DNA from: a virus
IMG/VR virus record: IMGVR_UViG_3300018411_000639
Location: 1-64,000 of that record
Strand: one strand, 5' to 3'
Length of the DNA stretch: 64,000 nt
Every line of letters begins with the position of its first letter. The stretch's first letter is position 1. The notes under the pieces were generated by a model. The model made no database searches. It was not told the origin of the DNA and was given only the letters and a program-made list of their open reading frames with translations. Positions 44,601 through 60,847 of the stretch are shown in pieces. Both the position numbers and the translations under genes were made by a program.

Positions 44601-47600
44601 GGGTTGCTTTCTTCAACTCTTTCTTTGTGGCGCCGGCAATCCCTTCCCGGGAAGGGTCTCCCGCTAAGACAAGCGACCCTTGCCCATCAAGAATACCCTT
44701 TCGGATCAACTGCTCTCGGAAGGCGTTGTCGTTTGCTAATCTTTCGTTTACGACTTGATCGCCGATGTCGCGGAAGTTTACACCCATCTCTTCCAGTTGC
44801 TCACGAGAGGTCTCAAGAACATCTCCGTACCCGATGCGACCATCTGCACCTCTCAGAGTCAGGCCCTTCGTGCTCTCTTTATTGGCGAAAGACAACTCAA
44901 TGCCGTTTTCGAGATCCGCTTTCGCTTTCTCTGCGGCTACAGCCAGTGACTCTCCTTTCATCATCTCTTCTGTTACAGGTGAAGTGATGACGGTACCGTG
45001 AGCGTACCCAGAGAACGGCATACGTCCAGATAGCATGAAGCGATTCATGATGCCGTCCTTATGATTCAGTTCATTCTCAAAGGAACCCATCATATCCTTG
45101 TAGGCATCGTCCATCCGCGACTGCATCTGTTTGATGCTTTCTCCGCTTCTAACTGATTGCCCATCCTCAAGGGCTTTTGCCGAGTTAAGCAGTGAGGCGA
45201 TTTTCTTCTGAGAGTCAGAGAAGAAGACCTGTCCATCTACGGCGTGCGTGCGAACCAATGGAATAACCACATCACCGACTCGTTCCCCTGTTTCCGGGTT
45301 CTTGATGGTTATGCCGCCCAAGTTGACTCGGAACGCATCCACGCCCTCGAAGCTTCCATCGTTCTCGTTGGCTACAGAGAACAGCGTCTGCATCATTTCC
45401 TCAACACTGGCTCCACTCTTAGGGATAAGCAAGTCCTCTAGGTTTACGTCCTGAACCCCTCCGGGACTCTTCTCCCCCATTACGTGAGTAAGGGATGCCA
45501 TGATTCCTCGTAAGGACTTGGCTCCCTCTGCATATTCCGGGGACCGCTGAATAATCCGCATTCTCCGGTCAAGGATCGGCTGTGCAACTTTTTCAAACCG
45601 CTCTCCGGTGAATATACGGAACTCTGCATCGCCCACATTGGAACCCAACATCTGATTGGATTTCGGTGTGACGCTGACCCCTTTTCCTGTATCGCCTTCT
45701 GCTCCTTTTGCCGAGTGCATCTCGGACATAATCATGCGACGAACAGGTACGCGGTAGGAGTTGGCTTGTTCCATCTGGCGCATTTCGGCAGCGACTTGTC
45801 TGACCTTTTCGTCGGGACTGTCTTGGATGGCTCGCACCATATCCCTGACACCTTCTAAGTGACCGGCATCAGAGGAAGGATTTCCCTCGATAAGGAGCGT
45901 CTTCTTCCCTGCCTCATCGAGCAGGAAGTCTCCCGTCTCGCTTCGGCTGTAACGTGCGTTCCAACTTGGCAGATGTTCGTCAGCAAGGCGTTCGAACTCG
46001 CCCTCTACACCTAGTTCGTCAAAGCGTTCCGCCATGTAGTTCACGGAGCTACCTGCGACCACGGAGCCGGATAAATGCTTCCCTAGTTCGAACTTACCGA
46101 CCAAGGCTGCGTCTCCGTAAGATTCTTTCCAGACGGCCTGAACGAGGTCATCGTATTCATCGCCCAAGTCGACGGTGGATGCGACAGTCTTCTCTACGCC
46201 ACTGATGCCGAGTTTGAGCTCTCTCAGCTGACCTTCGGCAACAAACCGCGCTTCGTCACCTTCTCCGACCATCTTGCCGGGGTTCACGTACATGGCGTCG
46301 TCTGCGATTTCTCCGACCTGACCACTTGCCTTGTTGTACACGATGTCGATGGTGCTTCCGTCCAACTCACGCGTACCGATGACATCACCCGTCTTCACGA
46401 AGTCACCCGGCGAAATGGTCATTTTTGCCGTTTCAAGGTCTTTGATCTTGAAGGTGTTCAATTCGTTCTTGTTCCACAAATCCTTGCGGAGAATCGGATT
46501 GACGAGCGAATGCTGCAGGTTCGTATCCGAGTAAAGACGGAACTCTTGCATGACGGCATCGAAGTCTTCGGAAGTATACTTGCCACCAAGTCCGGCCAGA
46601 ACATCTTCCTTGCGGGATTCCGTTGCGTCCAGAGCCTGCAGCATTTCATGGGTGTGCATCTGACGCACGTTCGCCATGACCGTTCCTTCGTAACTCCCCA
46701 TACCGGCGGCTTCCATCTTTCCGTAGTAGTTCTCTGCGGCTTCTCTCGTCACGACACTTTCACCGACACGGATATTCAAGGAGTCCAGTTTGGCTTCCTT
46801 GCCGACAAGATCGTCTTTGTCAAAAGATTGGAAAGACTGGAACTGCATCTGCACCGGACGAGTGAACCCGGTCATAAAGCCATACGAGTTCATGGCGACA
46901 CGATCCAACGTGGAAACAAATCCATCCGCAACTTTGTCTTCCCTCAGGATTTGATGCGCGCCTGTGTCCAGTAGGTTTTTGAACTCTGACACGGTCTGTG
47001 CGTCCGTGATTTCTTCGCCGTAATCCACTACCTTTTGGATAAGACCTTCTCCGTAAACAAGGTTCTTGACGTACCATTCCTGAACGGCGATATCCATATC
47101 CTTCATTTTCTTCAGACTGTTGTGCCCACCGTCGGTAAGTTGCTGACTCCAATTAGCCATGTAACTTGCTACCTTTTCATCGGTTCCCCCTACGACAGGG
47201 CTGAATACTTCGTTCAGCGTTTTTCTTACGCCTTCGTCCCGTTGATAGATCGCAGGCAAGAAGTTGATGGCAGAACTCATATCGACTAGATGGTTGGATG
47301 CAACGTCCGACATGTTCGGAATGACTTTCTTCAAGGCTTGCCCACCTTCTACAACGGTCTGCACCCCACTTAATCCGGGAGCAGCTAGTATCGGCTTGCT
47401 GAAGGCGCGGTTCACGGTCGCATTGACTGCTTGGAAATCACCACGGGAAACCATATCGGCGATCCGCTTGTTCTCGTAGATGTACTGCGTCAAGGATTCA
47501 TTCAACGTATCCTGATAATGTGTCACGAGCTTACCTGTATCCTTGTCCGTGTAGGCGTTCAGGCTGCCAATGATGGACTTCTCTATCCGACCTTTCGACA

Positions 47601-50600
47601 CGGATGCAACCGGGCCATCCATATTGATCTTGCTCATAGGGACGACTCCGGCAAACTCACGAATCTCATCCATTCCTTTTTCATCTGTGAGAGCTTCCAG
47701 TAATCGGTGAGAGTGTTTCTGATCTGTAAAGGCGAGCATCAAGTTATCGTCCGGCCCGTTGAATAGCTGTACGGCGTAATCGTGCGCCCCGACCATCCCC
47801 ATCTTCTTGTTGAAGAAAAGGCTCTCGACTTGCTTCAGGTGATGATCGTCGTAGTTCAGCTCTGCACGCAGTTGTTCTGCCACAGGCGCGAATCCTTTTT
47901 CGGACACCCCAATCGAAACCAGAGGGCGCGTACTGTTGATTGCTTGCTCTACGGTCTTCTGGATGTCATCCGGTGTATTGCCGATCGACGCATGGAACTC
48001 ATCCAGACTATTGCCCTTGTGTTTGAAACCGGATGTATCGAACTCGAGCATCGGTTGCGTTTCTGAATTAATGTAACCCCATAGCTTGCGGTCTTCATCG
48101 CTCAACGTTCCTTCGACGCTTTGTTCGTAAAGGGTGTCGGACGTTACGTCACCGAAATCGAAATCACGCATCTGCTCCGCACTAAAACGGGACTTCACGC
48201 TATCGACGGCTTGGAATAACTCTCCTCCGATTGCTTGTGCGATGTGGTAAGGATCGGTAGCGTCACCGATGACACTGTGCTTGAAGCCTGCAGGCAACAG
48301 CTGACGACCGACAAGATCATCGGCGATAGACTTCAAGGCTTCTACTTGCAGGAACTTTTTACGAGAAGGGAGTTTTTCATGTTTCCCAACCCCTCTTACG
48401 GCATTCAGGATGCCGGCCCCCGCCGAATTGTTCGAGGATGCATTGATCCGTGTATACCCGTTTCCGCCCACAACGTCCGCTACCTCGATGGAGTGAATGT
48501 CCGCAAAGGTCCGGTCGGCAATCCGTTTGTTTCCAGCGATAGAGTTTCCTGTTTCAGGGTCTTTCGTAAGCAAGCCCCAAGCTTTCCGTAGAGCCAATGT
48601 CTTCTGTGTTTCCATGTAGTTGCCTGCAATCTTCGGTGTCAGGTTGCTTGGCACTTGTGTCAGGGCTGCGTTCGTGCCGATGGTATTGATAGCTGTCTCC
48701 ATAGTGATATTGGTGTCTTTCAGGACATTGTAGAGTTCCTTGAATGTCGTCTTCTGTTGCGGAGATTTCAGTCTGCCTAGCACTTGATCCGCATTCAAGG
48801 TCTTGTCCAATTCACTGACAGAGCCGTTCTTCACAAGGAACGCGATATCTTCCATTCGGGCCGGTCTGCCGAAGGTTTCTCTGAAGGCGATGTTTACGTC
48901 CGAGTAAGTGCCGTACATCGTTTCAGCGTAACTGAATCCTCGCCCGTTCCCTAGTTGAAACATTCCCTCAAAGTTCCGTCGCGCGCTATCGGAAATCGTG
49001 CGGCCTACTTGTTGGTCCACCATGGCAGAAGTCACCTCTCCGGGGTTCAACGGAATGCGGTTCACAGCTTGATTGGACTCCAAAGCGCTTCGCAGTTCCG
49101 CTTTCCGTCGGTACTTGCTTCGACCCTGCAAACCAACTTGAGTGGCGTAAGAGCGCAAGCCTTTGAGTGGCATCTGGCTGAAGTCTGTCAGTTCCTCGGC
49201 TTCAACGACTGTATGGATGGAGAGGTCATTCTGGAACAAGGCTTGAATGTCGTCCGGGTTCGATCTGAAAATCGTACCTGTCACATTCTGATTTCCTTCG
49301 CCTGCTCCTCGGAACCGAAGAGCGAACAACCCTTCTGCTCCCGGTTGGTTCTTCGCGACTCGACTTGCGATGCTCCCGTCAAGTTCTGCTGTTGGGATGA
49401 ATTTCATCTCATCCACCTGATAGAACTGATTGCGGTTCAATGCGTAATCAAGGTGCGGCTGAATCTCTCCGTCAATCGCCATGAAGTCGTATCCGTCTTT
49501 GTCGATCTTAACCGCTTTGTTGGCGAACACCACGCTCTCGCCCGCATTGTCTGGTGTGACGGTTCGGTTGTTTGGGTTGGAGCGAATAGCTTCCACACCT
49601 TCGAGGACGTCTTGGTAACTTTTCTGAGCAAGAGTCATGGTCGCTTTCGTATCGGATTCCGCAAGATGGGCGTCAATGTCGATACCGAAGGCCGAAGCCC
49701 ACGAACCCAGACTACCCGGACTGCTTCCTGCACTAAAGCTTTCGATGCCTTGGTTGCTGGCGATACCGCTTAACGAAGACAACATTCTTCCTTGATTGGT
49801 TGCGCTCAGACCGGTTCTGGCATCATAGTGGTTCAGCGCCTTGACGGCAGGGATGCCTTGCTCCTGCAGCACGGCGTTCAGGAAAGGAATGTCATAGTTT
49901 GTGCCATTGTAGCTGAGAAGGGCTTTCCCCGGATTGTTGGTTTCGGTGATGGCGTTCCGTAAGGAAATAAGTTGCTGTCTTCCGACGTCTGTCTGGAGTC
50001 CTTGCTTGCGGCCTACTTTAGCAAGATTGGACAAACCTGACCTTGCCCGACGAAGATCCGTTGGGTCAGGGTCGAGCAGTTTGCCCAGAGCGAAACGTTT
50101 GGAACGAGGATTCATCACAAAGGCGTTGGGGTCAGAATAGACTGTCAGCCGTTTAATGGTGGACTGCTCAGCTGCACTCAACGTATCCCACCCATCTCCC
50201 TCTGCGCGGGCTATCAACTCTAGGAAGCCTCTTCGTTGCCGTTCTTCTACACCAAAGGTAAGGACTTCGCTGATTGGCTTATTTGCCTGAATCATACCCG
50301 AAGCATTCTTCGTTACCTGTTGCCGCACAAGAGCGACTTCCGTCATGGCCAGCAATCCTTTTTCGGACTCCGTTGCGTTTGGTCCGAAGTTCCCAAGGGT
50401 TTCCAAGTCGAAACCTGTAACGTCGCCTCCGTCCACCTCGAAGATGTTGCGGATGTTCTCTGCCTGCTTCTGGATTTCATTGAGGTCAAAACCTTTTGCT
50501 GCTTCAGGGTAAGTGGTGAACGCAAACGGCACACGGGATTGTCTGGCGAGAAGTTGGTTCAGCGTATCTCTTTGTTTCTGGTAAAGCTCCTGTGCGTCGG

Positions 50601-50676
50601 GATTATCCCACATTGTCCCAAGGTTGCTGTTGAAACTGCTTCTTGTTGTGTCTCGGTTGATGTCAGCTAAATACAT
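41602..50676 (-). CDS. Giant 3024-aa single-chain two-barrel DNA-dependent RNA polymerase-like protein with an N-terminal DEDDh exonuclease (probable virion/injected protein)
   Basis: Exonuclease motifs FDLET, YNGTNYDIPFL and HLAESD; beta-like PGDFVKTGDVIG and KLGISGVEK; beta'-like HKDGIMNRFMLSGRMPFSG, KRDP and NADVDGD; located in the tail operon. Confidence 0.8.
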   Translation of the reverse strand: MYLADINRDTTRSSFNSNLGTMWDNPDAQELYQKQRDTLNQLLARQSRVPFAFTTYPEAAKGFDLNEIQKQAENIRNIFEVDGGDVTGFDLETLGNFGPNATESEKGLLAMTEVALVRQQVTKNASGMIQANKPISEVLTFGVEERQRRGFLELIARAEGDGWDTLSAAEQSTIKRLTVYSDPNAFVMNPRSKRFALGKLLDPDPTDLRRARSGLSNLAKVGRKQGLQTDVGRQQLISLRNAITETNNPGKALLSYNGTNYDIPFLNAVLQEQGIPAVKALNHYDARTGLSATNQGRMLSSLSGIASNQGIESFSAGSSPGSLGSWASAFGIDIDAHLAESDTKATMTLAQKSYQDVLEGVEAIRSNPNNRTVTPDNAGESVVFANKAVKIDKDGYDFMAIDGEIQPHLDYALNRNQFYQVDEMKFIPTAELDGSIASRVAKNQPGAEGLFALRFRGAGEGNQNVTGTIFRSNPDDIQALFQNDLSIHTVVEAEELTDFSQMPLKGLRSYATQVGLQGRSKYRRKAELRSALESNQAVNRIPLNPGEVTSAMVDQQVGRTISDSARRNFEGMFQLGNGRGFSYAETMYGTYSDVNIAFRETFGRPARMEDIAFLVKNGSVSELDKTLNADQVLGRLKSPQQKTTFKELYNVLKDTNITMETAINTIGTNAALTQVPSNLTPKIAGNYMETQKTLALRKAWGLLTKDPETGNSIAGNKRIADRTFADIHSIEVADVVGGNGYTRINASSNNSAGAGILNAVRGVGKHEKLPSRKKFLQVEALKSIADDLVGRQLLPAGFKHSVIGDATDPYHIAQAIGGELFQAVDSVKSRFSAEQMRDFDFGDVTSDTLYEQSVEGTLSDEDRKLWGYINSETQPMLEFDTSGFKHKGNSLDEFHASIGNTPDDIQKTVEQAINSTRPLVSIGVSEKGFAPVAEQLRAELNYDDHHLKQVESLFFNKKMGMVGAHDYAVQLFNGPDDNLMLAFTDQKHSHRLLEALTDEKGMDEIREFAGVVPMSKINMDGPVASVSKGRIEKSIIGSLNAYTDKDTGKLVTHYQDTLNESLTQYIYENKRIADMVSRGDFQAVNATVNRAFSKPILAAPGLSGVQTVVEGGQALKKVIPNMSDVASNHLVDMSSAINFLPAIYQRDEGVRKTLNEVFSPVVGGTDEKVASYMANWSQQLTDGGHNSLKKMKDMDIAVQEWYVKNLVYGEGLIQKVVDYGEEITDAQTVSEFKNLLDTGAHQILREDKVADGFVSTLDRVAMNSYGFMTGFTRPVQMQFQSFQSFDKDDLVGKEAKLDSLNIRVGESVVTREAAENYYGKMEAAGMGSYEGTVMANVRQMHTHEMLQALDATESRKEDVLAGLGGKYTSEDFDAVMQEFRLYSDTNLQHSLVNPILRKDLWNKNELNTFKIKDLETAKMTISPGDFVKTGDVIGTRELDGSTIDIVYNKASGQVGEIADDAMYVNPGKMVGEGDEARFVAEGQLRELKLGISGVEKTVASTVDLGDEYDDLVQAVWKESYGDAALVGKFELGKHLSGSVVAGSSVNYMAERFDELGVEGEFERLADEHLPSWNARYSRSETGDFLLDEAGKKTLLIEGNPSSDAGHLEGVRDMVRAIQDSPDEKVRQVAAEMRQMEQANSYRVPVRRMIMSEMHSAKGAEGDTGKGVSVTPKSNQMLGSNVGDAEFRIFTGERFEKVAQPILDRRMRIIQRSPEYAEGAKSLRGIMASLTHVMGEKSPGGVQDVNLEDLLIPKSGASVEEMMQTLFSVANENDGSFEGVDAFRVNLGGITIKNPETGERVGDVVIPLVRTHAVDGQVFFSDSQKKIASLLNSAKALEDGQSVRSGESIKQMQSRMDDAYKDMMGSFENELNHKDGIMNRFMLSGRMPFSGYAHGTVITSPVTEEMMKGESLAVAAEKAKADLENGIELSFANKESTKGLTLRGADGRIGYGDVLETSREQLEEMGVNFRDIGDQVVNERLANDNAFREQLIRKGILDGQGSLVLAGDPSREGIAGATKKELKKATRDWKNSPAYVAATDEAFEKAGLEYVRERGIFGTGKRDPVFKTSSDLAVSVRLNDKLKGRTLMFQGYTANSWNADVDGDMEAMILNLESSYDKEKGRNVVRLLNEQDPAELATRKLYEAQSFTNAGKDGHMAAAIDEYVGDSIKFGSSNPEDEAGDAILRHAAYIQGEQNLPTDTATGKLKDNYLHNEAVVTTAIKNKHNKGAIGYISTPNYVLREIGEEVFKDSKEDQVHLDNLLKMTDESEQKPIDVKHIKDGGEELTKVPKYRLGLTQLANGEHEMGLQNVIDAMEGPIFPKGTAPVAADILNGSVDMNIPMNQSLLSLSKMFQDPRATQIWNSPLIRSQPNPRGLMDRLKSVVNETAEGSSEVIRAKQEAIRRAKQPSAIRIDGVALDKSNYLMPNEGVYDPGIYQVKSYGQGERSRQPFVVLQETKTKKQQRVYGADMEVLGQKIQESFRIGTRSDVPAFREEIITKGAQQFVDEAMTDADTFQFRQVEALVASKTLSSQSPSDKIDVLESTVTKRGKRANRLRETVASSILSHEGYDHAIAKRAQESFFGTDEGKATSQFAGELRSRGHKDSGSLIRQFNDQIRERGASAESREQVRHSVMARDAASVKGVNSDTIPTPSSGDVGIQKIIQRTEGARGQLYNLHDVSEQLTTRYAEQVRGLDESAAERLNDQNVSKAVEEETVLTPWRQASTQNQGILKQLDEDFDTLASSQSDEAMQYLNWNSNDIIQSFLSERNIQGLGEARIAFGNQAGLKINEVSMNDLRGIYEAGSSGARNTQAARKTAEQIGHYFEALDGASIEEARQAMDRHTVQNTRGLEDEVMGGISDINDAIRKTGQSAGERKSVASAGMDAVEQIARKPMGKFGKTMIGVGVAVGLSSLLAGMQFSAPPSALKASHRPNGSGSSDSNGQFDQKPAVSPRIAPSSKERKAYVGNEGVQFHVKAKGSQDSSAVLSAVKRTVEKVNGPNLNVNLNTQDDTSQVSDSWLQEKLSGLF
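42743..42758 (+). repeat. Dispersed 16-bp motif (exact), inside the RNAP-like gene
   Basis: GTGTCGGAATTGACAC. Confidence 0.9.
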
Positions 50677-50695: not shown

Positions 50696-53600
50696 TTATA
50701 CGAGTTTGGATGTGCGAATCTTCTCTTCGATTTCCTGTCGCTTATCCTTCTTCATTTTTACATCTACACCCACATCGCGGGTGCTGTAGCGGTAATCTAC
50801 CTCTATATCTTCTAAGCCCATCTCGGTAAGGACATCCATAAGTTTGTTTCTCACCGTCAGGGCATTACTGCGGACATTCATTTTCGGAAGAGGGATTTCT
50901 CCTTCTGCATTGGCTTGGTCGATTTGATCCTGCCAAACATCGAACTCCCCGAAGTCCAGTCCCTGCTGCTTAATCATCTTGATTTTCACACTGTCGAGGT
51001 CTGTCTCCTCGTTCCACCCTTCCCACTCTGCATCGGGCAGAACGTTCTCCTGGAAGTACGCATCCAGAGAAGGCTTATCTTCGACAGGCATTCCCCATGT
51101 ACTCTCTAAAGCTCGTCGCAGGTACTTTGGAGCCAGACTCAGAATCTTGCCCTTCTCTTCTTCCGGAGCCTTCATAAAGTACTTCATGTACTGGCGGTCT
51201 GTCTTTGGTAACGCAGCTAGAATGTTGGCCAGAGGATCTCCACGATCATAACCGTACATCGTCTTCTCCGATTTGTTGTAGTAGTCGATGGCTTTGGTGG
51301 CATCTGAGGACAGGCGAGTGACGCTTCTGTCGCTTTGGATCTCGGTCAGCTCCTTATTGATTTGACCGACAATGAGTGACTGAGAGGCTTGCATGTCAAC
51401 GTACTTTGGCGCACCTGTCTTGAACTCGAACTGATCTCTGTCTGCGTAGTTCATCTTGATGAATTTCTTGAAGTCCATCAGATCCCGTTTGCGGGCTTTC
51501 TTGTCCTGTCCGTTGAACTCGGCACTCTTCATGAAGGCTTTCACGTCGAAGCCTTCTTCTTTGAGCGTCTTTTGTGCGTACTCCTCGTAGAGTCCGCGGT
51601 ACTTCACGTATTTCAAGGTGTCGATGTATTCGTTCAGATTGCGTTCCTTCTGGCGTGTTTCTGGTATCCAGCGTTCGCCTGTCGTAGCTTCTTTTGTTCC
51701 GACAATAGCTTTCCCGATGGCGGTGACAGAGAAACCTGTCAAGGCTCCCAATATCTTTCCGTAACGGGTAGATCCGAACGCTGACCCGAGCAACGTCCCC
51801 CAAATCAAACCACTTGGTCGGTTGATGCTTTCCCGAATGGCAGGAATCAGGAAGTCACGTACAGGATGCGTCCAGTTCTGGAAATCCTTGCCGTACACTT
51901 CTCGTTGCTCGTAACTCTCTGCCGCACTTCTTACCTGAAGGACTTTCGTATGAAACGGTGTGTTCAGATGGGACACAGCCTCCCATGCTTTCCCGAAGGC
52001 GATCTCCATCGGATTGTAGCGGGCATGGATGGATGCAGGAGTGAAGTCATCCTCTTTCTCCGTAGCAAGGCCGCGCTTCACCATGGTCTTGTTTACATTC
52101 AATCCGTTGCTGTAGACCACGGCCCGAATACTGTTGACGGTATCTTTTGTGACCTGATTGGCTTCATCCATATCGTAACCGATTCTCACGGATCGACCGG
52201 GTTTCAGCAGCTGAGCCAGTTGCTTGCTCGCTTCCTCTCCCGTTCCATCTGCCATCGCTTCGCTTACGTGTACTCCGGCTAGTTTGATTGGATTGTCGGG
52301 CATCTCGTTCGCGATAAAGGTGTTGTTGCTCAGCATCTTTTTGACGGTCACAGTCTTCATTTCAAGGTTCGCCGTTTTGAATCGGTACGGATAAATCCGC
52401 ATCGGCTCTTTGGCTTCGGTGACGCGATTGTCGATGGCAGACACTTCTTCTTGCTCTTCTGTTGTGATCTTCATCTTGGACAGCATAGCCTTTGTTTCTG
52501 CATATTCTCGCGAGTACGGAGCCACATCGCCTAATATCCTCAGGCGGTCAATCGGATCGTAAAGTTCTCCTCTGCCAATCGACCCATCCGCTATACCGTT
52601 CCGGATGTAATCACGGGCTGTCCGAAGGTTATTCAAGGACTCCTGAAGCAAATCATCGCTATATTTGAATTTTGCTGTATACGTCTGATTTGGGTCGTCC
52701 CGGTTTATATATTGAACATACCCGTTCCCCTTTTCTTGTCCTAGCGCCCACATATAATAATTCACTTGTTTGTGGTGGTCTGCTCGAGCCTCTCCTGTTT
52801 TGAGGACCTCTCTAAAGCCTTTGTCACTAATTGTCTTGATGTCGACTACACCTATCTTTGTTCTCGAAGATTCGTCATGAATGACGGCATCGTAGAAACC
52901 GAGGACGCCGTTCTCTTCGTCTTCGATCTTCCCTTCTGTATCAAGGGCGAGGCCGGACTTCAACCACATATCTTCTATTTTTTTGTGGTACTCCGTTCCT
53001 TCATCAACGATACTCTGCAAGCCTTCGTCCGTAATCGGGTCTTGGTTCAGCAAGTGCTTGATGATTTCCTCGGGTTCTTTTCCTAGAGTGGACGAACCGA
53101 CACGAAGCGCCGTAGGGTCTTTGATGTTCCACGTTCGCTCGTAGCCTTCTCCAGGTAGTCGCATCTCTCCCTTGGCTACTTTCGTATAAGGGTCACCTGT
53201 TTGGAAGTTGGTAAAGTAATCCTCGCCCGGCATCCATTCTGGCATCGTGTTCTTGATTGGGTTGATGTACGCAACATCATTCCTTCTTTTCGGCAAGAAG
53301 CGTCGGAAGATTTCCGAGAACTCTCCTCCGAGCCCGCCAGCGTTCTGATCCCAGAACTGGCGATTGAACGACATAGACCAACCCGGGGTGTCTATAACTT
53401 CTTTTTCAGCTTGCGCTTCACCGGTAACGAATCCTTGGATTGCAAAGCCGTAAATACCAGCTATATCGCCCCACTGGTTCGCCTGTTCGCTCAAGCTATG
53501 CCCTACACTGTTTGGTGAAGCAACATCCCCTATTGTAGGTTCAGGCGTTACTGGTGGAGTCGTGTCCACTCGCGTGTCCGCACTTACAGCTTTGCTTAGC

Positions 53601-56428
53601 GCATACTTCCTTAGATCGAAGTTGACTTCGGATAGGCCTAAGCTATTGTCTATGTTGATGACCTGCATTCCGCCGCTCGGCGTCTGGTAAACTTCGTAGG
53701 ATTCATCCTTCGGTCGTGCGCCTGCAGTTGTGCCAATATCGACACCCAGTTCCTGTAGTTTTGGGGTCAGCAGATCGCCTGCGACAGCCGCATCGTCGGG
53801 CATCGCTCGTGATGGAGAACCTCCCGATGAAACTTGGGCTGCAGCTTCCTCTCCGCCTTCGGTAGAAGGAGCCGAACCCTGTTGCCCAGGAATCGCCGCT
53901 TGCAGACTCGGATCGACAAGTGGTTCCGTGTAAGAGGTTGCTCCGCCCTTCTGCCAATACTCTTCATGCATCCGAAGACGCGGCTTGAGGATACGACCGA
54001 TAGTAGCGCCGAAGGCCGGCCCGATGACAGGGATATTCTCGCCCTCTGGGGAAGTCATGAGGTATGGTCTGTCGTTGTAGTGCTTGCGGTCATAATAATA
54101 CTTGTCGGTGACGAAGTGACGAATCGGAGCCAATGGCTGCGTGAGTGTCGGGAACCATGCGTTCTTGAAGTATTCTTCACGGCTTCCGAACTTACTGTCG
54201 GAGAATTCTGCGTCACCCATGATTCTTCTGTAAAGGTTGGGTTGGAAGTATTGGATCTTTCCACCTGTCAAAGGCGTATTACCCATGTCCCAATAGCGTC
54301 CCTTTCTTACTTCCGTCATACCGCTCTCGTAATATTCTTCCCGTTCCTCTGTGGTGCTGGTCCAGTCTACGACGTTGATGCCGGGAATGTCTGCGATCTG
54401 TTCCGATCCTGGAGTCAGGTCGGCAATCTCTTTGGCGACTTTGGTGATGCCCAAGGAGTCCTTTACGCGATGCCAGCCGAGGTCAAAGTTCTTAACGTTC
54501 CTTGCGGTTCGCATCGTGATGTTGTCAGGGCTTCCGTTCTCGTCCTCGTCTCCGCCCTCGGTCAGGTAGTTCAGGTATTGATACCCCTGATAGGCTCCGT
54601 AGACAGGAAGGAATCGTTTCAGGACGAGGTTCGCTGCGATGTGTCCGACAGAGGCTTTGCTTTCGTTACTCATGCCCGGACCGAACATCCCGATAGCTTG
54701 ATCCATTCGGTCAAACATGAAGTACGGCAAACTCGTTCTGGATGTGACGTTATCTCCGATGGTGTCCGGCCCGCCCTCTACCTTCTTGCGTCCGGCAACG
54801 AATTGGTGCGCCCAATCTTTCAGGTCATACCCTTTGTCTTCTTTGAAGGCATCACGGAGGTTGTGGCTGTCACGGAAGGCGACAATCAGATCCTCTCCTT
54901 CTGGTGCGTTACCGAAAGCCCCCGATAGGTCGTGCTGAGATGTGACGGACTTGGACGCATGGAACATGTTCGTCTTGCCCAACTTGCGTCCCATCTCTTC
55001 GATGTAATGGTCCGGCTTGAAGATGTCAGCAAGACCTGTTTCTTGTTGATAGAGGTGCTCAACGGCCTTATCTTGAAAGCCGAGGTCAAGTGTTTCCATC
55101 ATCTTGCCGTAAAGCCGTTGGTAGGTTTTACTTTTCTCATCGTGATGCTCGTAGTCCACCAAGTTCAGGTTTGCCATCTTCCGCATCTGATCGACTTCCC
55201 GAGGCAGCCCATACGGGCCCTGTTTCTCTTTGGGTATCTTCCAGACATGGTAGTTGCTCCCGACTTTCTCAAGACCACCCATATCATCGTTGATCCTGAA
55301 CACATTCCCGTCCGAGAAGAGGAGAGGTTTGTCACCAAAGACATCCTTTATTTTGCTGTCTGTTCTGCCTGCGAGCTTGGTAACGTGAGGTTGGTACGTG
55401 TTGGCGTGCAGAAGTCCTGAAGATAGCTTGGTCCGGTTCATCTGATCGACGTCGAACAAGCGGAGCGGATTGATGCCTACAGCCGGAATCTTGAAGTCTG
55501 TTGCAAGGGAGTGGACGAGATTATTCTTCGCCTTATCTGCCTTCCGGACGTCAATGAACTCCCCGAACTCGTCCACCATGATGTTTTTATCAAGCACGAT
55601 GTTCTTGTACTTGTTAGATGAAAGCAGTGTTTCGGTTACGCCTTCCTCTGTGGTGTAGGCTGTGTTGATAAACTGATTGATCCTGTCAAGCGTCCCATCT
55701 TTGTCATCCAGACGGATGCGGTCGGTACGGGATTGCACGCCCCCGTTCTTCGCTACATGGATAAGGTCTTCCAGTGTGGCAGAACGGTAGCCTGACCGTT
55801 TCATCTTCTTCTGCCCCTCTTCGGCTGCCTGCGTCATCTTTCTGCTGACATCCTGCATGAGTTGCGACTGGACAGGTTTCCTCGCCTGAGCGACCCCTGC
55901 TTTGTTCAGTCCATCTAAAGTTGACTTCATGCGGCCCATCTCGTACCCAAGGTCAGTGTCCGAGTAAGTATGGAGCGTAACGTCTTTTGCTGCCTCGGAT
56001 AGCTTTTTGTTTTTGCTGATGACTTCCTTGTTCAGGTTCTTGATGTCGCGTCGTGTTTCTGACATCATCTCATTGAAGTTCCGGGGATTCGTCATGCGCT
56101 TCAGGTTGGCTTTCGTAGGCTCCATCCGCAACAGACTTGCCTTCGGAGCTTCGGTATTGTTCTTGCTCCAACGACGCATGGTCTGCATCGTAGTGTCCCC
56201 GTACCCCTGAAAGTCATCTGCGTAGCGGAGCAGCTCTTTGATACCGCCTTTCAGCAAGCCCGATCGGTAAGCGGCGATACCCGCGATGCCGATAGCGGAA
56301 GCGATGAGTGTACGCTTTAGTGAGCTATTCTCTCGGGCCATACCTGTCGTATCGTCTTCCGTATAATCGCTATCTCTCGATCTGACTCTCTGTGTTCTTC
56401 GCTTTTCCCATTTGCGTTCGGATTGCAT
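50696..56428 (-). CDS. 1910-aa protein in the tape-measure position, with PD-(D/E)XK (Cas4/RecB-like) and SNase-like domains
   Basis: Follows the tail chaperones; GTEYH...GFYDA...VDIKT...QVNYY; VKKMLSNNTF...IKLAGV...AVVY..G.NVNK.MV..GLA; several Gly-rich hydrophobic helices; true start may be Met at 56341. Confidence 0.7.
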   Translation of the reverse strand: MQSERKWEKRRTQRVRSRDSDYTEDDTTGMARENSSLKRTLIASAIGIAGIAAYRSGLLKGGIKELLRYADDFQGYGDTTMQTMRRWSKNNTEAPKASLLRMEPTKANLKRMTNPRNFNEMMSETRRDIKNLNKEVISKNKKLSEAAKDVTLHTYSDTDLGYEMGRMKSTLDGLNKAGVAQARKPVQSQLMQDVSRKMTQAAEEGQKKMKRSGYRSATLEDLIHVAKNGGVQSRTDRIRLDDKDGTLDRINQFINTAYTTEEGVTETLLSSNKYKNIVLDKNIMVDEFGEFIDVRKADKAKNNLVHSLATDFKIPAVGINPLRLFDVDQMNRTKLSSGLLHANTYQPHVTKLAGRTDSKIKDVFGDKPLLFSDGNVFRINDDMGGLEKVGSNYHVWKIPKEKQGPYGLPREVDQMRKMANLNLVDYEHHDEKSKTYQRLYGKMMETLDLGFQDKAVEHLYQQETGLADIFKPDHYIEEMGRKLGKTNMFHASKSVTSQHDLSGAFGNAPEGEDLIVAFRDSHNLRDAFKEDKGYDLKDWAHQFVAGRKKVEGGPDTIGDNVTSRTSLPYFMFDRMDQAIGMFGPGMSNESKASVGHIAANLVLKRFLPVYGAYQGYQYLNYLTEGGDEDENGSPDNITMRTARNVKNFDLGWHRVKDSLGITKVAKEIADLTPGSEQIADIPGINVVDWTSTTEEREEYYESGMTEVRKGRYWDMGNTPLTGGKIQYFQPNLYRRIMGDAEFSDSKFGSREEYFKNAWFPTLTQPLAPIRHFVTDKYYYDRKHYNDRPYLMTSPEGENIPVIGPAFGATIGRILKPRLRMHEEYWQKGGATSYTEPLVDPSLQAAIPGQQGSAPSTEGGEEAAAQVSSGGSPSRAMPDDAAVAGDLLTPKLQELGVDIGTTAGARPKDESYEVYQTPSGGMQVINIDNSLGLSEVNFDLRKYALSKAVSADTRVDTTPPVTPEPTIGDVASPNSVGHSLSEQANQWGDIAGIYGFAIQGFVTGEAQAEKEVIDTPGWSMSFNRQFWDQNAGGLGGEFSEIFRRFLPKRRNDVAYINPIKNTMPEWMPGEDYFTNFQTGDPYTKVAKGEMRLPGEGYERTWNIKDPTALRVGSSTLGKEPEEIIKHLLNQDPITDEGLQSIVDEGTEYHKKIEDMWLKSGLALDTEGKIEDEENGVLGFYDAVIHDESSRTKIGVVDIKTISDKGFREVLKTGEARADHHKQVNYYMWALGQEKGNGYVQYINRDDPNQTYTAKFKYSDDLLQESLNNLRTARDYIRNGIADGSIGRGELYDPIDRLRILGDVAPYSREYAETKAMLSKMKITTEEQEEVSAIDNRVTEAKEPMRIYPYRFKTANLEMKTVTVKKMLSNNTFIANEMPDNPIKLAGVHVSEAMADGTGEEASKQLAQLLKPGRSVRIGYDMDEANQVTKDTVNSIRAVVYSNGLNVNKTMVKRGLATEKEDDFTPASIHARYNPMEIAFGKAWEAVSHLNTPFHTKVLQVRSAAESYEQREVYGKDFQNWTHPVRDFLIPAIRESINRPSGLIWGTLLGSAFGSTRYGKILGALTGFSVTAIGKAIVGTKEATTGERWIPETRQKERNLNEYIDTLKYVKYRGLYEEYAQKTLKEEGFDVKAFMKSAEFNGQDKKARKRDLMDFKKFIKMNYADRDQFEFKTGAPKYVDMQASQSLIVGQINKELTEIQSDRSVTRLSSDATKAIDYYNKSEKTMYGYDRGDPLANILAALPKTDRQYMKYFMKAPEEEKGKILSLAPKYLRRALESTWGMPVEDKPSLDAYFQENVLPDAEWEGWNEETDLDSVKIKMIKQQGLDFGEFDVWQDQIDQANAEGEIPLPKMNVRSNALTVRNKLMDVLTEMGLEDIEVDYRYSTRDVGVDVKMKKDKRQEIEEKIRTSKLV

Positions 56429-57095
56429 TCATCACACCCTCATTCTGCCAATGGACGCCTCCGATGAGAGGGAAGTCCATGAAGTCTTTCTTCTGGTTAA
56501 ATTCGTCTTTGAAGTATATCATCGGATCCATTCCGTTAGCCCTCAGTTCATCCACAAACGCTTTGTTGTCAGAACCCGAGTTCTCGGCGTACTCCTCTAC
56601 TTCTTGTTGGTTGGTGGTGAGTTGGATGTTATGACCTTTCAGGTTCAGGATTCTCTCTGCCCTTGCTACCGCCAGCATCAAGCGATCCCATGTCCAGTCT
56701 TCCATCTGCTCGTAGGAGTATTCCGGCATAGCCGCCTTGACGACAGCCATACACTCCTGGTCGAATTGCTTGGTCTTTCTCTTCCCTTTCTCGTAGGCAT
56801 CCAGAACGGAACCCAAACTGGTGAAGTTTGAAGCCTCGACGATCATCGGGCACGCATACGCCGACACCCCCGCAAGAGGGTAGTTCTCGAAGTCAATGTC
56901 TGCGGGCTCAAGGATGGCCGCTTGGCAGATGGCATCTTCCATGTCGTGGTCATCCTGCGTCAAGTTGGTGATGTCCCGATACTCTTTTCGCGTCAGGGTC
57001 CGAAAGACGAATTCTTTATTCTGAAAAAGGACATAAATCACTTTATGTCCTTCATGTGCTTCTTTGTGGTAAAACAAATCATAGATGGAGATCAT
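56370..57095 (-). CDS. Tail assembly chaperone-like protein 2
   Basis: FVFRTLTRKEY motif shared with the upstream paralogue; between the tube genes and the tape-measure-like gene. Confidence 0.6.
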   Translation of the reverse strand: MISIYDLFYHKEAHEGHKVIYVLFQNKEFVFRTLTRKEYRDITNLTQDDHDMEDAICQAAILEPADIDFENYPLAGVSAYACPMIVEASNFTSLGSVLDAYEKGKRKTKQFDQECMAVVKAAMPEYSYEQMEDWTWDRLMLAVARAERILNLKGHNIQLTTNQQEVEEYAENSGSDNKAFVDELRANGMDPMIYFKDEFNQKKDFMDFPLIGGVHWQNEGVMNAIRTQMGKAKNTESQIER

Positions 57096-57106: not shown

Positions 57107-57712
57107 CTATAATATCTGGATGGAGTAGTCTTTTGTGAATCCGCTATTCTCCATGACGATCTGTGCATAGGTTGACGGGATGCCCGCTTTTCCGATAGCC
57201 ATCTTACGGAAGTCGTACTTGCTTGGCCAAAGCGTACAGGTCTCACAAATGATTTCTTCTCTCTGCAGAGGGTCAAGGTTTGGGATAGCTGCGAGCTGTT
57301 TGTACTCGAAGCGGTTCAGAGTGCGGAAGACGAAGTACTGTCCCATGATTTCGATAGCCATAAGGTTGTAGTCTTCCCATTGGCGCTTCCACGTTTCGAC
57401 TTGTGTGATGGTAGGTCCACCCACAAAGAGGGGTTCGTCATAAGCGTAGAGTTCAGGGTTGTCGCCGAGTTCTCCTTCTTCCGGCTCGCTTCTCAGCGTA
57501 GGTAGGTCTTCCCACTCTTCCGGTTCGTTCTGCAGATGAACACTTTCCTCGGTTTCTTCGCTTGTGTCGGAATTGACACCTTCAACTACTTCATTGTCAT
57601 CTCGGAACGATGCGTACAGGTCTTCGTTTGCTGCAGGTTCCTCACTGATTTGCTTGGATAGTTTTTCTTTGGCTTGCTTTGCTAATTGATCTAGGTTTCC
57701 TCCGCTGAACAT
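57107..57712 (-). CDS. Tail assembly chaperone-like protein 1
   Basis: Acidic N-terminus, then QVETWK...FVFRTLNRFEY...AGIP...I...SGF. Confidence 0.65.
   Translation of the reverse strand: MFSGGNLDQLAKQAKEKLSKQISEEPAANEDLYASFRDDNEVVEGVNSDTSEETEESVHLQNEPEEWEDLPTLRSEPEEGELGDNPELYAYDEPLFVGGPTITQVETWKRQWEDYNLMAIEIMGQYFVFRTLNRFEYKQLAAIPNLDPLQREEIICETCTLWPSKYDFRKMAIGKAGIPSTYAQIVMENSGFTKDYSIQIL
57564..57579 (+). repeat. Dispersed 16-bp motif (exact)
   Basis: GTGTCGGAATTGACAC. Confidence 0.9.
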
Positions 57713-57731: not shown

Positions 57732-58247
57732 TTAGTCCGTGCTTTCCTCAATATCCTGTGCAATGAAATCGTAGGTCTTGAAAAGGGGGTTCCCTGACGC
57801 ATCCACTTCCACACCTGAACTACGCAAGAACACGCGCTTTAAGGTTGTGTTCAAGGGATGGTTCGCTCCAAAGTCCACTCGGATCTCCAGATCGTTCCCT
57901 CTCAATGCTTCCGTGTTACCTTCTTTGAAGAAGGGTGTATGTTTGGGTGTCCCATCGTACTTAGGAACGCCGCCCGCTTCCTCTTCTTGTTCATATCCGG
58001 CCATAGCGTTCGTAACCAGAGCACCGTACTCTTCTTCCAGTTTAGCCTTTGTGTTGGCGTCCAGTCTCCCTGTTGCGGTCAGACCTTTCTTGGTCTGGTA
58101 AGCTTTAACGGCTTCCTCGTAAGCAAGGGTGTACTCTTTCCCGATCGCATACCCGTTCAAAGCCCCGACAGCGTTCAACATAATGCCCACTTCCTGAACC
58201 TCATCTGAGATATAAGGACTTCCGGGGACATACTTTAGTTCTGACAT
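57732..58247 (-). CDS. Peptidoglycan-binding-domain tail protein, 171 aa
   Basis: AVKAYQTKKGLTATGRLDANT PG_binding_1 signature; C-terminal Y.FIA.D tube-like strand. Confidence 0.7.
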   Translation of the reverse strand: MSELKYVPGSPYISDEVQEVGIMLNAVGALNGYAIGKEYTLAYEEAVKAYQTKKGLTATGRLDANTKAKLEEEYGALVTNAMAGYEQEEEAGGVPKYDGTPKHTPFFKEGNTEALRGNDLEIRVDFGANHPLNTTLKRVFLRSSGVEVDASGNPLFKTYDFIAQDIEESTD

Positions 58248-58301
58248 AATAGCACCTCTTTTATCTTCTCCATTTTACCATTTAACTTTGACCTTCACAA
58301 T

Positions 58302-59165
58302 CTAGGCTTTGGGGATATATACGCCAGGTTCACCTGTTTTGGAGATGTACCCTTTTGTTCCGTTGCTGAGCTGGACATAGTACCAATCCGATACAGTGCG
58401 CAGAATCCTTACGTTAGTGGATTGCTCCAGTGTTGTGATGGTTGGGTAAGTCATACCCGGACCTGTCCGTATCGCCGTATCAGGAGCCACAAATAAGTTT
58501 GCGAACGACCCTGTGTTCAATCCTTGGATGACCGCAAGTGTTTCGGTATCGAGCACGCCGGATTGATTCAAGTTGTAGTCACTCTGGATTTGACGGACGA
58601 CACCCTTTGTCTTCGTGTCGTAGAACCCGTTGATCTCGACAGCATAACCCAACTTCAGGAGTTGCGTCTGTGTTTTCCGTAATTCGTCGCTGAACTCTTT
58701 GTCCTCCAAAGACTGCAGGGAATTCAGTCTGCTTTCCTCTGCAGAGCTTGGACGGGATGAAGCTTTCCACGTAGAGCCGGACAAAGGCTGCAGGTGAGAT
58801 AAGGCGCTCTCCACCCATCCGGGGTAATTGTTCTTCTTCGCTTCCTCTGCAACTTCTTCATTCACTGAATCAACAATGGCTTCGATTTCTCTTGTGCTGT
58901 TCTCTTCGGGATTGTGGATCGGCACGCGCAACATCCCCACGACAATCCGATTCCCGATAGCGACATCATCAAAGGTACGAGAAGCGTAGCCAAAGATCGG
59001 TTTCAGTTGCTCCTGTATCTGATAACTCAAGCCAGAGATATGCGTCAGCTTTTCCCCGTTGACGTAAATAGCGACGTCGGCGCCTGAAAAGTATTCCTCG
59101 GTAAAGATGTTATGCTCCCGCGTATCGCCAGAGTTGTACTTTAAGGTAAGGCGGTCATCTGCCAT
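58302..59165 (-). CDS. Tail tube paralogue fused to PG-binding and SH3b domains
   Basis: YFSGAD....GNRIVVG tube-like N-terminus; Q.QL..LGY..NGFYD.KT (PG-binding); IRTGPG.TY...WYYV....GYI (SH3b). Confidence 0.7.
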   Translation of the reverse strand: MADDRLTLKYNSGDTREHNIFTEEYFSGADVAIYVNGEKLTHISGLSYQIQEQLKPIFGYASRTFDDVAIGNRIVVGMLRVPIHNPEENSTREIEAIVDSVNEEVAEEAKKNNYPGWVESALSHLQPLSGSTWKASSRPSSAEESRLNSLQSLEDKEFSDELRKTQTQLLKLGYAVEINGFYDTKTKGVVRQIQSDYNLNQSGVLDTETLAVIQGLNTGSFANLFVAPDTAIRTGPGMTYPTITTLEQSTNVRILRTVSDWYYVQLSNGTKGYISKTGEPGVYIPKA

Positions 59166-60847
59166 CAGTTATTCCTCCTTGTTTCAATGGTCCACTTCCA
59201 CGGCGTTTCTCCTTGAGGGTAAACAATCAGCTCCACTTGAGTCGGTTCGCTTCCTTGGTCGGGATTGTAGAGGAGCGCATCCTGTACGTCCTGCAGCGTC
59301 ATCGAACGCGAGGAGTTGGCCGGAATGATGATAGTCTTCGTAAAGACCTCCTTCTTGCCGTTAGCGTACTTGGCGATGGCGGAAACCTTCACCACTTGCG
59401 GTACGTCTTGGGTTACGCAGTCCATACCGAAAGTCTGACTGACCTCTTGCATGTTGTCCTGATAGATCAAAGTAGACTTACCTGGTTGCTTTAAGAAGAG
59501 GTACTGTGTGCCGTTCACCTGCTCTTGTTTCTCTAGTCCGGCTTCGCTTTCCAATGTCTGCCACAACTCCCGATCGACAACGCCATCAGCAGTCAGGCCG
59601 CTTTGTCGCTGAGCCTCTTTTACTGTGAGGATGGTAGCTTCATCCATTAGACCATTCACGACCACACGCCCTGCGATATACTCACGGTCAGCTAGGCTGT
59701 TGAGTGCCTTCTGTAGGACGGAAACCAAGGCCCCTTTATCGCCTTCCCTGAGTTCAGGGTAAGTACTCTCTTCTCTCTGATTCCTGTAAGCATAGACATC
59801 ATATTTGGACACGTAGCCCATCCTTGTTTCGTACCAGTCGCCTTCTTCTCCTGCTATAACCAGATCCTCTTTGTACGGATAGACAGTCAATGGTACAGAC
59901 AGAACCGAAGGACTCTCGTAAACGAGTGCGCCGCTTTTATTTGTCACGACAGCTGACGGATTGATTGGCGCGCCCCCGGCCTCATAAGACTGTAGCAACA
60001 GATAGGTTTCATCGTCCACACCGCCACTGACGCGCAAGCCCTGGCTGGATTGGAAGGCACGAACCGCATCATAAGTACGGGTGTCGTAAATGCCAGTAGA
60101 GACCAAACTGTCGTGCCCTGCAGCCCGCAGAAGGTCTTGCACTCTTCTGACATCCTGGCCACTCAAGGTGTTGGCCGGGTCCAGTGAGAGGTTTCGCTTC
60201 AAGTCCGTGCGGTAAGAGCGAAGATTCTCTGCATTCAAATCTTTGTCATAACGGATATCGAAGTCCGTCAAGGTTCGGATTGTGGCAGACCCTTGCCCCT
60301 CTGTACTGTTTCCGAACGCTTCTCCTGTGAAATTCGTCAGATCCCTTGCAACAAAGCTGAAGGTGTTCTCTGTGAAGATATCCTCTATGGAAAGAACTTG
60401 TCCTTCGTCTGTAATATCCACACCGTAAATGAACATCTGGACAGCTGAACCGTACTCATTAGCGCAGATGATCATGAGATCAAACAGAGGAAGTTCATCC
60501 GCCTTCAGTTTCCCGAACTTCTTGAGCCATGGTGCTTGGTCCAGTAACTCGTTTACCCAATGCTGATTGATAAGTGTAAAGACCATCGTGCCTGCATAGA
60601 TTCGCGTCCCACGGGTAAACCCGCCAACGTTGACCTTTCCGATCAATGGAACAGGCTTCTTGTCTCGGAACATGGAATAGGAGAAGGTAGTCAGAGAACC
60701 CAGTACGATTGGCTTTGTTTGTGGCAGTAAGGCAAACACCAGAGCATCCGTACCAGAGAAGGTTCGGTAGTATTTCGGAATAGATGAATCGGTCATTCGG
60801 CTCGCTTCGTTGTATTCTGGCAAAGCATAACACTCCTTTCGTATCAT
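59165..60847 (-). CDS. Tail tube paralogue fused to two PG-binding domains and an SH3-like domain
   Basis: TFSGTD...RG.R..AG.MVF...DELP.FD....ANEYG shared with the tube gene; two PG_binding_1 signatures. Confidence 0.75.
   Translation of the reverse strand: MIRKECYALPEYNEASRMTDSSIPKYYRTFSGTDALVFALLPQTKPIVLGSLTTFSYSMFRDKKPVPLIGKVNVGGFTRGTRIYAGTMVFTLINQHWVNELLDQAPWLKKFGKLKADELPLFDLMIICANEYGSAVQMFIYGVDITDEGQVLSIEDIFTENTFSFVARDLTNFTGEAFGNSTEGQGSATIRTLTDFDIRYDKDLNAENLRSYRTDLKRNLSLDPANTLSGQDVRRVQDLLRAAGHDSLVSTGIYDTRTYDAVRAFQSSQGLRVSGGVDDETYLLLQSYEAGGAPINPSAVVTNKSGALVYESPSVLSVPLTVYPYKEDLVIAGEEGDWYETRMGYVSKYDVYAYRNQREESTYPELREGDKGALVSVLQKALNSLADREYIAGRVVVNGLMDEATILTVKEAQRQSGLTADGVVDRELWQTLESEAGLEKQEQVNGTQYLFLKQPGKSTLIYQDNMQEVSQTFGMDCVTQDVPQVVKVSAIAKYANGKKEVFTKTIIIPANSSRSMTLQDVQDALLYNPDQGSEPTQVELIVYPQGETPWKWTIETRRNN

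Follow-up and report, generated by a model that had tools for sequence, protein, structure and literature searches.

In the tape measure proteins of phages T5 (pb2) and phiIPLA35 and of mycobacteriophage TM4, the enzymes are cell-wall hydrolases and the bodies are long helical tapes. To our knowledge, cell-wall hydrolases make up nearly all of the enzymes carried by proteins of the tape-measure module, and no nucleic-acid enzyme had been found there before the RNA polymerase (RNAP) of Thermus phage P23-45. Chaban et al. 2024 (PMC10770324) showed experimentally that this phage has an active virion RNAP within a tape measure of 5002 residues. Here we analysed a window of 64,000 nucleotides (nt), positions 1 to 64,000 of the IMG/VR viral record IMGVR_UViG_3300018411_000639, whose minus strand encodes at 50696-56428 a cysteine-free protein of 1910 amino acids (aa). 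The gene is open throughout (1910 codons) and has a GAGGG ribosome-binding site 7 nt 5' of its ATG. The parent record, 112.6 kb in length, has an estimated completeness of about 51%, so that the phage behind it is an uncultured one of jumbo size. A sequence-only reading of this stretch had assigned two nuclease folds to the protein. We favour, with a probability of about 0.55, the view that it is a virion protein of the tail module with a RecB-like nuclease, a second tail protein that is expelled into the host beside a tape-measure RNAP.

By tblastn, the 1910-aa protein aligned with ORF145 of the Bacillus thuringiensis jumbo phage 0305phi8-36 at 34% identity over 87% of the query, and on sequence grounds it is the orthologue of gp145 of this phage (ABS83703.1/YP_001429636.1). 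The annotation of ORF145 reads 'identified as virion protein by mass spectrometry'; presence of the 1910-aa protein in the virion is known by this homology. The two proteins share their position between gp143/gp144 and gp146 (or the equivalents), the motif set (GTxxH, GFFD, VDIKT and QxxNFY in gp145) and a domain resembling staphylococcal nuclease (SNase), but in gp145 a large insertion sets nuclease motifs II and III apart. A megablast of the 1910-aa region against phages gave no match. We found no published mention of a PD-(D/E)XK domain in the gp145 family, and none of the nuclease domains of gp145 in Hardies et al. 2007.

The nuclease domain is of the RecB/Cas4/lambda-Exo PD-(D/E)XK type and spans residues 1100-1284 (52577-53131, minus strand, as for all features of the protein), with the catalytic residues H1148, D1180, D1196-x-K1198 and Q1221...Y1225. 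The motifs GTEYH (from residue 1144; 52999-52985), GFYD (from 1177; 52900-52889), VDIKT (from 1195; 52846-52832) and QVNYY (from 1221; 52768-52754), as well as SNNT in the SNase-like domain, were each located where the sequence-only reading had them. PHROG families of Cas4-like and RecE-like exonucleases matched residues 1137-1279 (best phrog_1706, E 4.3e-14), and Pfam PDDEXK_1 scored 21.9 bits against the isolated domain, the cut-off being 22. Single-sequence PDB searches with the whole protein, its downstream neighbour or the isolated nuclease domain gave nothing useful, and profiles alone gave matches. Indeed, a profile of 59 family members matched Cas4 SSO0001 with an E of 1e-5. In a profile built from the nuclease domain only, the motifs G-x-x-D-A, V-(D/E)-I-K-T and Q-x-x-x-Y each found their counterpart in SSO0001, with D1180 and D1196-I-K1198 aligning to GRADA and IEIKT, and Q1221/Y1225 to QLQIY.

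Two AlphaFold2 (AF2) models cover residues 1-1100 and 1090-1530 of the protein, and the second, which holds both nuclease folds, had a mean predicted local distance difference test score (pLDDT) of 89.7. The best structural match of the nuclease model was Cas4 (4ic1; Z 14.0, 150 residues, 3.2 Å), and further Z scores were 13.3 for LHK-Exo, 12.8 for MGME1, 12.2 for lambda exonuclease, 10.4 for RecE and 10.3 for Dna2; Foldseek gave a match with an E of 3.6e-6. The top structural matches (Cas4, LHK-Exo, MGME1, lambda Exo, RecE, Dna2 and AdnAB) are all DNA-end-dependent exonucleases. With this resemblance and the catalytic residues kept, the fold assigned to the domain earlier was confirmed. The domain thus shares its fold with Cas4 SSO0001, lambda exonuclease, LHK-Exo, RecE and MGME1 (Z 10.4-14.0) and its motifs with Cas4, but differs from such RecB-like exonucleases in being embedded in a 1910-aa virion protein instead of being free or associated with Cas or recombination functions. 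Cas4 sensu stricto was rejected as an identification, because the 1910-aa protein has zero cysteines and hence lacks the four-cysteine Fe-S cluster. A search for free-standing relatives of the domain returned one 227-aa fragment and no close homologue.

H1148, D1180, D1196, K1198, Q1221 and Y1225 were invariant among 120 close homologues, and among those 50%-identity representatives in which the domain occurs, the catalytic positions were retained in about 85-98%. Of the motif set proposed earlier these six residues stood as conserved, whereas E1146 of GTEYH did not. Judged from the alignments, the catalytic residues are under clear purifying selection where the nuclease domain occurs. The predicted site, intact, conserved and of the end-dependent type, is apparently active. 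One sub-lineage is different: at two loci (L016 and L021; 10001-10780) GTxxH is lost, D-I-K has become N-I-R, Q-x-N-Y-Y has become E-M-N-Y-D, and there is a 22-residue insertion, so that the domain there looks, by its sequence, like a retained inactivated copy.

The nuclease domain is followed by an OB-fold (oligonucleotide/oligosaccharide-binding) domain similar to SNase (52004-52369; residues 1354-1475). Pfam SNase (PF00565) scored 24.0 bits against the isolated domain, above the cut-off of 21, and the 59-member profile matched SNase chains with an E of 1e-6, spanning SNase residues 4-110. The model superimposed on staphylococcal nuclease (1sta) with a Z of 11.9 (112 of 137 residues, 2.6 Å), and the SN domains of Tudor-SN also matched. 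The OB-fold topology is therefore that of staphylococcal nuclease, but its site is degenerate. In the 1910-aa protein the equivalents of D21, D40, T41, R35, E43 and R87 are N1369, H1387, V1388, K1382, E1390 and S1433, respectively. Across the gp145 family N or G mostly occupies the D21 position, D40 varies, T41 is hydrophobic and R87 is T or S, a basic residue being kept at R35 alone. The earlier description of a degenerate domain with SNNT (from residue 1367; 52330-52319) for DGDT was correct in both fold and defect, and the suggestion that the domain is inactive agrees with the family-wide replacement of calcium-binding and catalytic residues. We therefore rejected an active SNase; since the D21, D40, T41 and R87 equivalents are lost throughout the family, the domain is a non-catalytic OB module, similar in its loss of catalytic residues to the non-catalytic SN domains of Tudor-SN, and it may bind nucleic acid. 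Some sources name family members 'endonuclease YncB (thermonuclease family)', which indicates that the SNase similarity had been picked up automatically before.

The rest of the protein begins with a Gly/Ala-rich hydrophobic helix (56252-56323; residues 36-59 by hydropathy scan, modelled by AF2 as a helix at 36-56). An N-terminal body (53948-56251; residues 60-827) consists of a helical bundle and then mixed alpha/beta domains with a pLDDT of mostly 80-95, and in the conservation profile its strongest conservation falls at residues 600-830. A disordered linker rich in A, G, S and P (53534-53947; residues 828-965; pLDDT <50) and a highly conserved block (53132-53533; residues 966-1099) separate the body from the nuclease. 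The two nuclease folds are joined by a linker that is helical in the AF2 secondary structure (52370-52576; residues 1285-1353). Downstream of the SNase-like domain come conserved helices (residues 1476-1534, from the conservation profile and the AF2 model), two glycine-zipper hydrophobic helices (51695-51814; residues 1539-1578) and a conserved C-terminal domain (50699-51694; residues 1579-1910), which was delineated from the conservation profile and has no Pfam match. The GxxxG positions of the glycine zippers are conserved in the family consensus, and one relative gave a weak Gly-zipper_Omp match for this region. The hydropathy scan placed Gly-rich hydrophobic segments at residues 40-59 and 1539-1578, in line with the helices noticed in the sequence-only reading.

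The model of residues 1-1100 (pLDDT 76.5, predicted template modelling score (pTM) 0.72) contained about 42% helix, with a longest helix of 35 residues, and many strands. Searched as a whole against the PDB, it reached at best a Foldseek E of 1.7 and a Z of 6.3, the latter on a helical hairpin. The best explanation of the model is that the N-terminal part forms a novel compact body; the missing PDB match for the whole model does not by itself show that the fold is new. A search of the ESM Atlas returned unnamed clusters of the gp145-like family only, and NCBIfam gave no matches for either this protein or its giant downstream neighbour, a 3024-aa protein.

The two giant proteins together contain no cysteine in 4934 residues, compared with a mean of 0.64% in the other 34 open reading frames (ORFs) on the minus strand of the window, which include proteins of hub, baseplate and fibre size; about 32 cysteines would be expected at that rate. 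The same was seen among relatives, as cysteine was absent from 216 of 265 gp145-like proteins and from 48 of 63 downstream genes, and the gp145-like proteins with cysteines were mostly intein carriers. Such exclusion is in keeping with proteins that pass through a narrow channel and then refold with neither disulfides nor metal clusters, and may thus be linked to ejection; it would also explain the absence of the Cas4 Fe-S cluster.

We analysed how the nuclease is distributed in the family, which is large: a length-restricted search yielded 395 clusters at 90% identity, and there were 827 representatives at 50% identity (233 at E <1e-30). Long contigs that carry members are about 200 kb in size. 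The homologues of Moorella phage MTATph1 and Bacillus phage WH1 lack the PD-(D/E)XK domain and retain the SNase-like domain. Among 80 related IMG/VR loci, 20 matched from the start of the nuclease region and the nuclease was absent from 60. Of 122 near-full-length representatives, a set skewed toward the query, 87 carried the nuclease, 8 a Peptidase_S8 subtilase and 28 neither; no Pfam domain was found in five nuclease-less members tested. On a scaffold tree (FastTree), the presence of the nuclease requires at least 11 gains or losses, an approximate count, versus about 29 with shuffled labels. Since the domain is absent from many members and was repeatedly gained or lost on this tree, the sequences indicate that the scaffold is conserved and the nuclease an accessory inserted into it. 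The subtilase, which P0204, P0221 and six more representatives carry (E 5e-42 to 9e-61), occupies another site, in the linker equivalent to residues 835-930 (mapped from P0204). In addition, some relatives (P0016, P0028, P0049, P0182, P0221 and P0222) carry LAGLIDADG-type inteins at two highly conserved sites, at about residues 715-726 and 1070-1103, with both sites occupied in some.

The gene directly downstream (41602-50676, minus strand) encodes the 3024-aa protein, likewise free of cysteine, which is by its position the homologue of gp146 of 0305phi8-36, the 'hypothetical tape measure'. Its similarity to gp146 is confined to the last 130 residues, where a hydrophobic segment lies, and one weak stretch. 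The N-terminus resembles DEDD-type exonucleases and carries motifs of the DEDD type, with Pfam RNase_H_2 scoring 22.0 bits, at the cut-off. Further on, a KRDP motif (44488-44499) is followed after 38 residues by DVDGD (44368-44382). D-x-D-G-D was present in the downstream gene of 36 of 64 unique related loci, and a model of the region matched 44 of the 64; NADFDGD occurs exactly in one of them (L017) and NVDFDGD in two (L007 and L008). When 28 DxDGD regions were aligned, the R, P, D, D, G and D positions were invariant. The resulting profile matched chains of RNAP beta', Rpb1 and Rpo1N only, among them the phiKZ non-virion RNAP (nvRNAP; E 4.9e-5) and bacterial beta' (E 6e-4). The earlier designation of this neighbour as an RNAP-exonuclease thus gained support at the level of profiles, from a beta'-type core and an RNase_H_2 match at the cut-off. 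Read most economically, the sequence makes the neighbour a fusion of an RNAP with a protein in the tape-measure position. The YonO-like RNAP that Iyer et al. 2021 listed for 0305phi8-36 is a different protein (ABS83659.1).

Of the 80 related IMG/VR loci that were kept, 72 had a large gene immediately after the gp145-like gene, and they provided the 64 unique downstream genes. As to the co-occurrence with an RNAP gene that the sequence-only reading had proposed as a check, 36 of these genes carry the motif and gp146 of 0305phi8-36 does not. The lengths of the two giant genes across loci gave a Spearman coefficient of 0.44; the loci are not phylogenetically independent and we draw no conclusion from this value. 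Paralogy of the two giant proteins was rejected, as their C-termini are not similar.

The order of genes around the pair is that of 0305phi8-36 and Bacillus phage WH1, where tube paralogues, two 'tail chaperonins', the gp145-like gene, the gp146-like giant gene and a gp147-like lysin hub follow one another. In the window, homologues of the 'tail chaperonin' genes gp143 and gp144 lie at 57107-57712 and 56370-57095, and the gp147-like baseplate hub, with NlpC/P60 and glucosaminidase domains, at 36308-41578 (all minus strand). The C-terminal domain of the gp143-like protein is paralogous to the N-terminus of the gp144-like protein (E 9e-10), and the published 'two-gene' chaperonin arrangement (PMC2147016) is thereby reproduced. 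The gp144-like gene shares 59 nt (56370-56428) with the start of the 1910-aa gene; the overlap of the same pair in 0305phi8-36 is 53 nt. Just upstream of the chaperonins, at the positions of the tube paralogues in 0305phi8-36, proteins with PG_binding_1 and SH3 domains are encoded (57732-60847, minus strand); peptidoglycan-binding modules on proteins of the tail-tube region are unusual. Moorella phage MTATph1 has the same order, except for a shorter downstream gene and then a transposase insertion. At this locus (L004, 17858-25214) the gene in the tape-measure position encodes just 1309 aa and is separated from the hub by a transposase and three short ORFs, and it looks like a giant gene broken by an insertion element.

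How the two proteins might act can be pictured as follows. During tube assembly the chaperonins would keep both giant proteins in or at the tail lumen, and upon sheath contraction, once the hub lysins have breached the wall, both would be expelled. They would then insert in the membrane, where the glycine-zipper helices could help to form or anchor a conduit, and present their enzymes at the site of DNA entry; the nuclease, tethered beside the OB domain, would act on DNA ends. Speculatively, the favoured substrate would be the blunt terminal-repeat ends of the incoming genome, whose resection would permit annealing of the repeats or give the virion RNAP a template. We favour this substrate because DNA ends are what all the enzymes closest to the nuclease in structure act on and because the DNA of 0305phi8-36 is blunt-ended with a terminal repeat of 6479 bp (PMC4113786). 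Host or competitor DNA may be an alternative substrate. Ejection, nuclease activity and the joint function that the sequence-only reading had called a cassette are all putative. In its fullest form, the scheme would have the whole 0305phi8-36-like clade of jumbo myophages deliver a two-protein, cysteine-free nucleic-acid machine through the very long tail. Its parts would be a pilot protein, with a RecB-like end-processing nuclease tethered to a membrane conduit, and a tape-measure-fused RNAP with a proofreading-type exonuclease; the nuclease would resect the genome at its blunt terminal-repeat end during entry and so couple entry to circularization or concatemer formation and to early transcription. 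We offer this extension tentatively and consider it rather unlikely to hold as a whole.

Several points weigh against the expelled-nuclease reading. The tail location, ejection and nuclease activity of the 1910-aa protein are properties that we infer. Folded 20-kDa domains in a trimer should not fit a lumen of about 4 nm, and packaging in an unfolded or partly folded state must be assumed. The subtilase of the relatives is typically extracellular and would point to targets in the envelope, not to DNA. The pairing with an RNAP is not universal, given that the DxDGD motif is absent from gp146 of 0305phi8-36. Finally, many members lack the nuclease, and motifs are degenerate in about 10% of those that bear it (L016, L021 and L013), so that, as far as the sequences tell, the core role of the scaffold is not nucleolytic.

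The protein might instead be the tape measure that sets tail length, with the RNAP-bearing neighbour as separate ejected cargo. Its gene lies directly downstream of the gp143/gp144-like pair and is the first past the chaperones, as the sequence-only reading had noted; the 'tape-measure position' given to it there is correct in this respect, but the second giant gene separates it from the hub, and it is the C-terminus of the downstream gene that is the part conserved beside the hub gene. The glycine-zipper segments are hydrophobic as in many tape measures, family lengths concentrate near 2000 aa, the protein is by homology a virion protein, and the contig has no other recognizable tape-measure family. 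PF10145 and PF20155 were not found in the contig, which is weak evidence as tape measures diverge fast; likewise, no Pfam or NCBIfam tape-measure model matched the 1910-aa protein at E <=0.1. The rise of an alpha-helix is 0.15 nm per residue, and 1930 residues would as a helix reach only about 290 nm, whereas the tail of 0305phi8-36 measures 486 nm; 2537 residues on their own would likewise fall short of it. Moreover, residues 1-1100 are modelled as compact (longest helix 35 residues) and residues 1090-1530 as globular. The tail-length argument for 0305phi8-36 and the mass-spectrometry data reportedly go back to Thomas et al. 2007. Hardies et al. 2007 (PMC2147016) assigned the tape measure to gp146, by tail length, and placed the chaperonins 'one gene removed' from it. 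Tape measures with enzyme domains and inteins embedded in them are known (10.1101/2025.01.02.630785; reference list of PMC8570332), which would suit such a role; P23-45, for its part, shows that one protein can be both RNAP and tape measure. With its compact modelled body, no match to a tape-measure family and a literature that gives the role to the next gene, we regard it as unlikely that the protein is the tape measure.

Two further explanations dispense with delivery of a working DNA nuclease into the cell. The protein could be a static structural or assembly component of the tail, for example of the inner baseplate or in tail completion, that is never delivered and whose nuclease is a relic or a maturation enzyme. 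The annotation says just 'virion structural protein', the conserved non-enzymatic scaffold is big and, in the nuclease-less members tested, free of Pfam domains, and many lineages dispense with the nuclease, all of which would suit a static part. Such a part would not account for purifying selection on the catalytic residues where the domain is present, for a total exclusion of cysteine that is unique to the two giants among the virion proteins of the window, for membrane-type glycine-zipper helices, or for a placement between chaperones and the gene in the tape-measure position, which is typical of lumen proteins; we think it improbable. Alternatively, the protein could serve envelope penetration, its nuclease and SNase-like domains acting outside the cytoplasm on matrix DNA or other phosphodiester polymers beside the hub lysins, and the subtilase of relatives likewise. 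Cysteine exclusion is typical of exported proteins in Firmicutes, Peptidase_S8 domains, present in relatives, are typically extracellular, and the adjacent tail proteins are rich in peptidoglycan-binding, SH3 and lysin domains. But the closest structural relatives of the nuclease are intracellular exonucleases that depend on DNA ends, the SNase-like domain has lost its calcium site and catalytic residues, and other virion proteins of the window that are externally exposed do contain cysteines, and a role in the envelope therefore seems very unlikely to us. A hub with an SNase domain is nevertheless on record for the related element BtI1, in Hardies et al. 2007 (PMC2147016), and would agree with it.

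Returning to a delivered tail protein with a RecB-like nuclease as the preferred reading, the comparison with P23-45 gp96 (PMC10770324) is instructive. With gp96 there is a precedent for the delivery of nucleic-acid enzymes through a very long tail from within the tape-measure module, and the 3024-aa neighbour resembles it in its DxDGD logic, in having a membrane segment and in occupying the tape-measure position. The differences are that P23-45 is a siphovirus, that its fusion bears a metallopeptidase and not nucleases, and that no separate nuclease-bearing partner has been described for it. Similarity in sequence between gp96 and P0122 or P0001 was not detected, and 0305phi8-36 and its clade are absent from the supplementary survey of Chaban et al. 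2024. Like the tape measures of T5 (pb2), phiIPLA35 and TM4, the 1910-aa protein lies beside chaperones and has hydrophobic membrane segments and an optional enzyme in a tail-lumen module; unlike them, it has a DNA nuclease, and the 1530 residues modelled are globular.

It is also similar to the polyvalent proteins of Iyer et al. 2017 (PMC5512222), which are giant, multidomain and variable in architecture, are encoded in virion modules and carry nucleic-acid and peptidase domains. Those proteins are predicted to be delivered with the DNA and are mostly packaged in the head, in contrast to the 1910-aa protein, which belongs to the tail module. For one relative, BFVD gives the annotation 'Large polyvalent protein associated domain' (E 3.6e-20). 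The LPD Pfam and MuF marker domains had no match in the 1910-aa protein, and 0305phi8-36, tape measures, SNase, RecB and subtilisin are all absent from PMC5512222. What we describe would be, in these terms, an enzyme-bearing tail-lumen or 'polyvalent' virion protein that has a DNA nuclease in place of the usual cell-wall hydrolases.

This predicted nuclease is found in part of a large family of jumbo-phage proteins, usually beside an RNAP-bearing protein in the tape-measure position. If it is active, a DNA-end nuclease on a second protein of the tail module would extend the idea that came from P23-45, and long tails would be delivery devices for genome-processing enzymes. The exclusion of cysteine from both giant proteins is a simple sequence signature that may help to spot tail-expelled proteins elsewhere. 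Phage 0305phi8-36, whose gp145 keeps the nuclease motifs, is a cultivable model in which the fate of a blunt-ended, terminally redundant genome upon entry could be probed.

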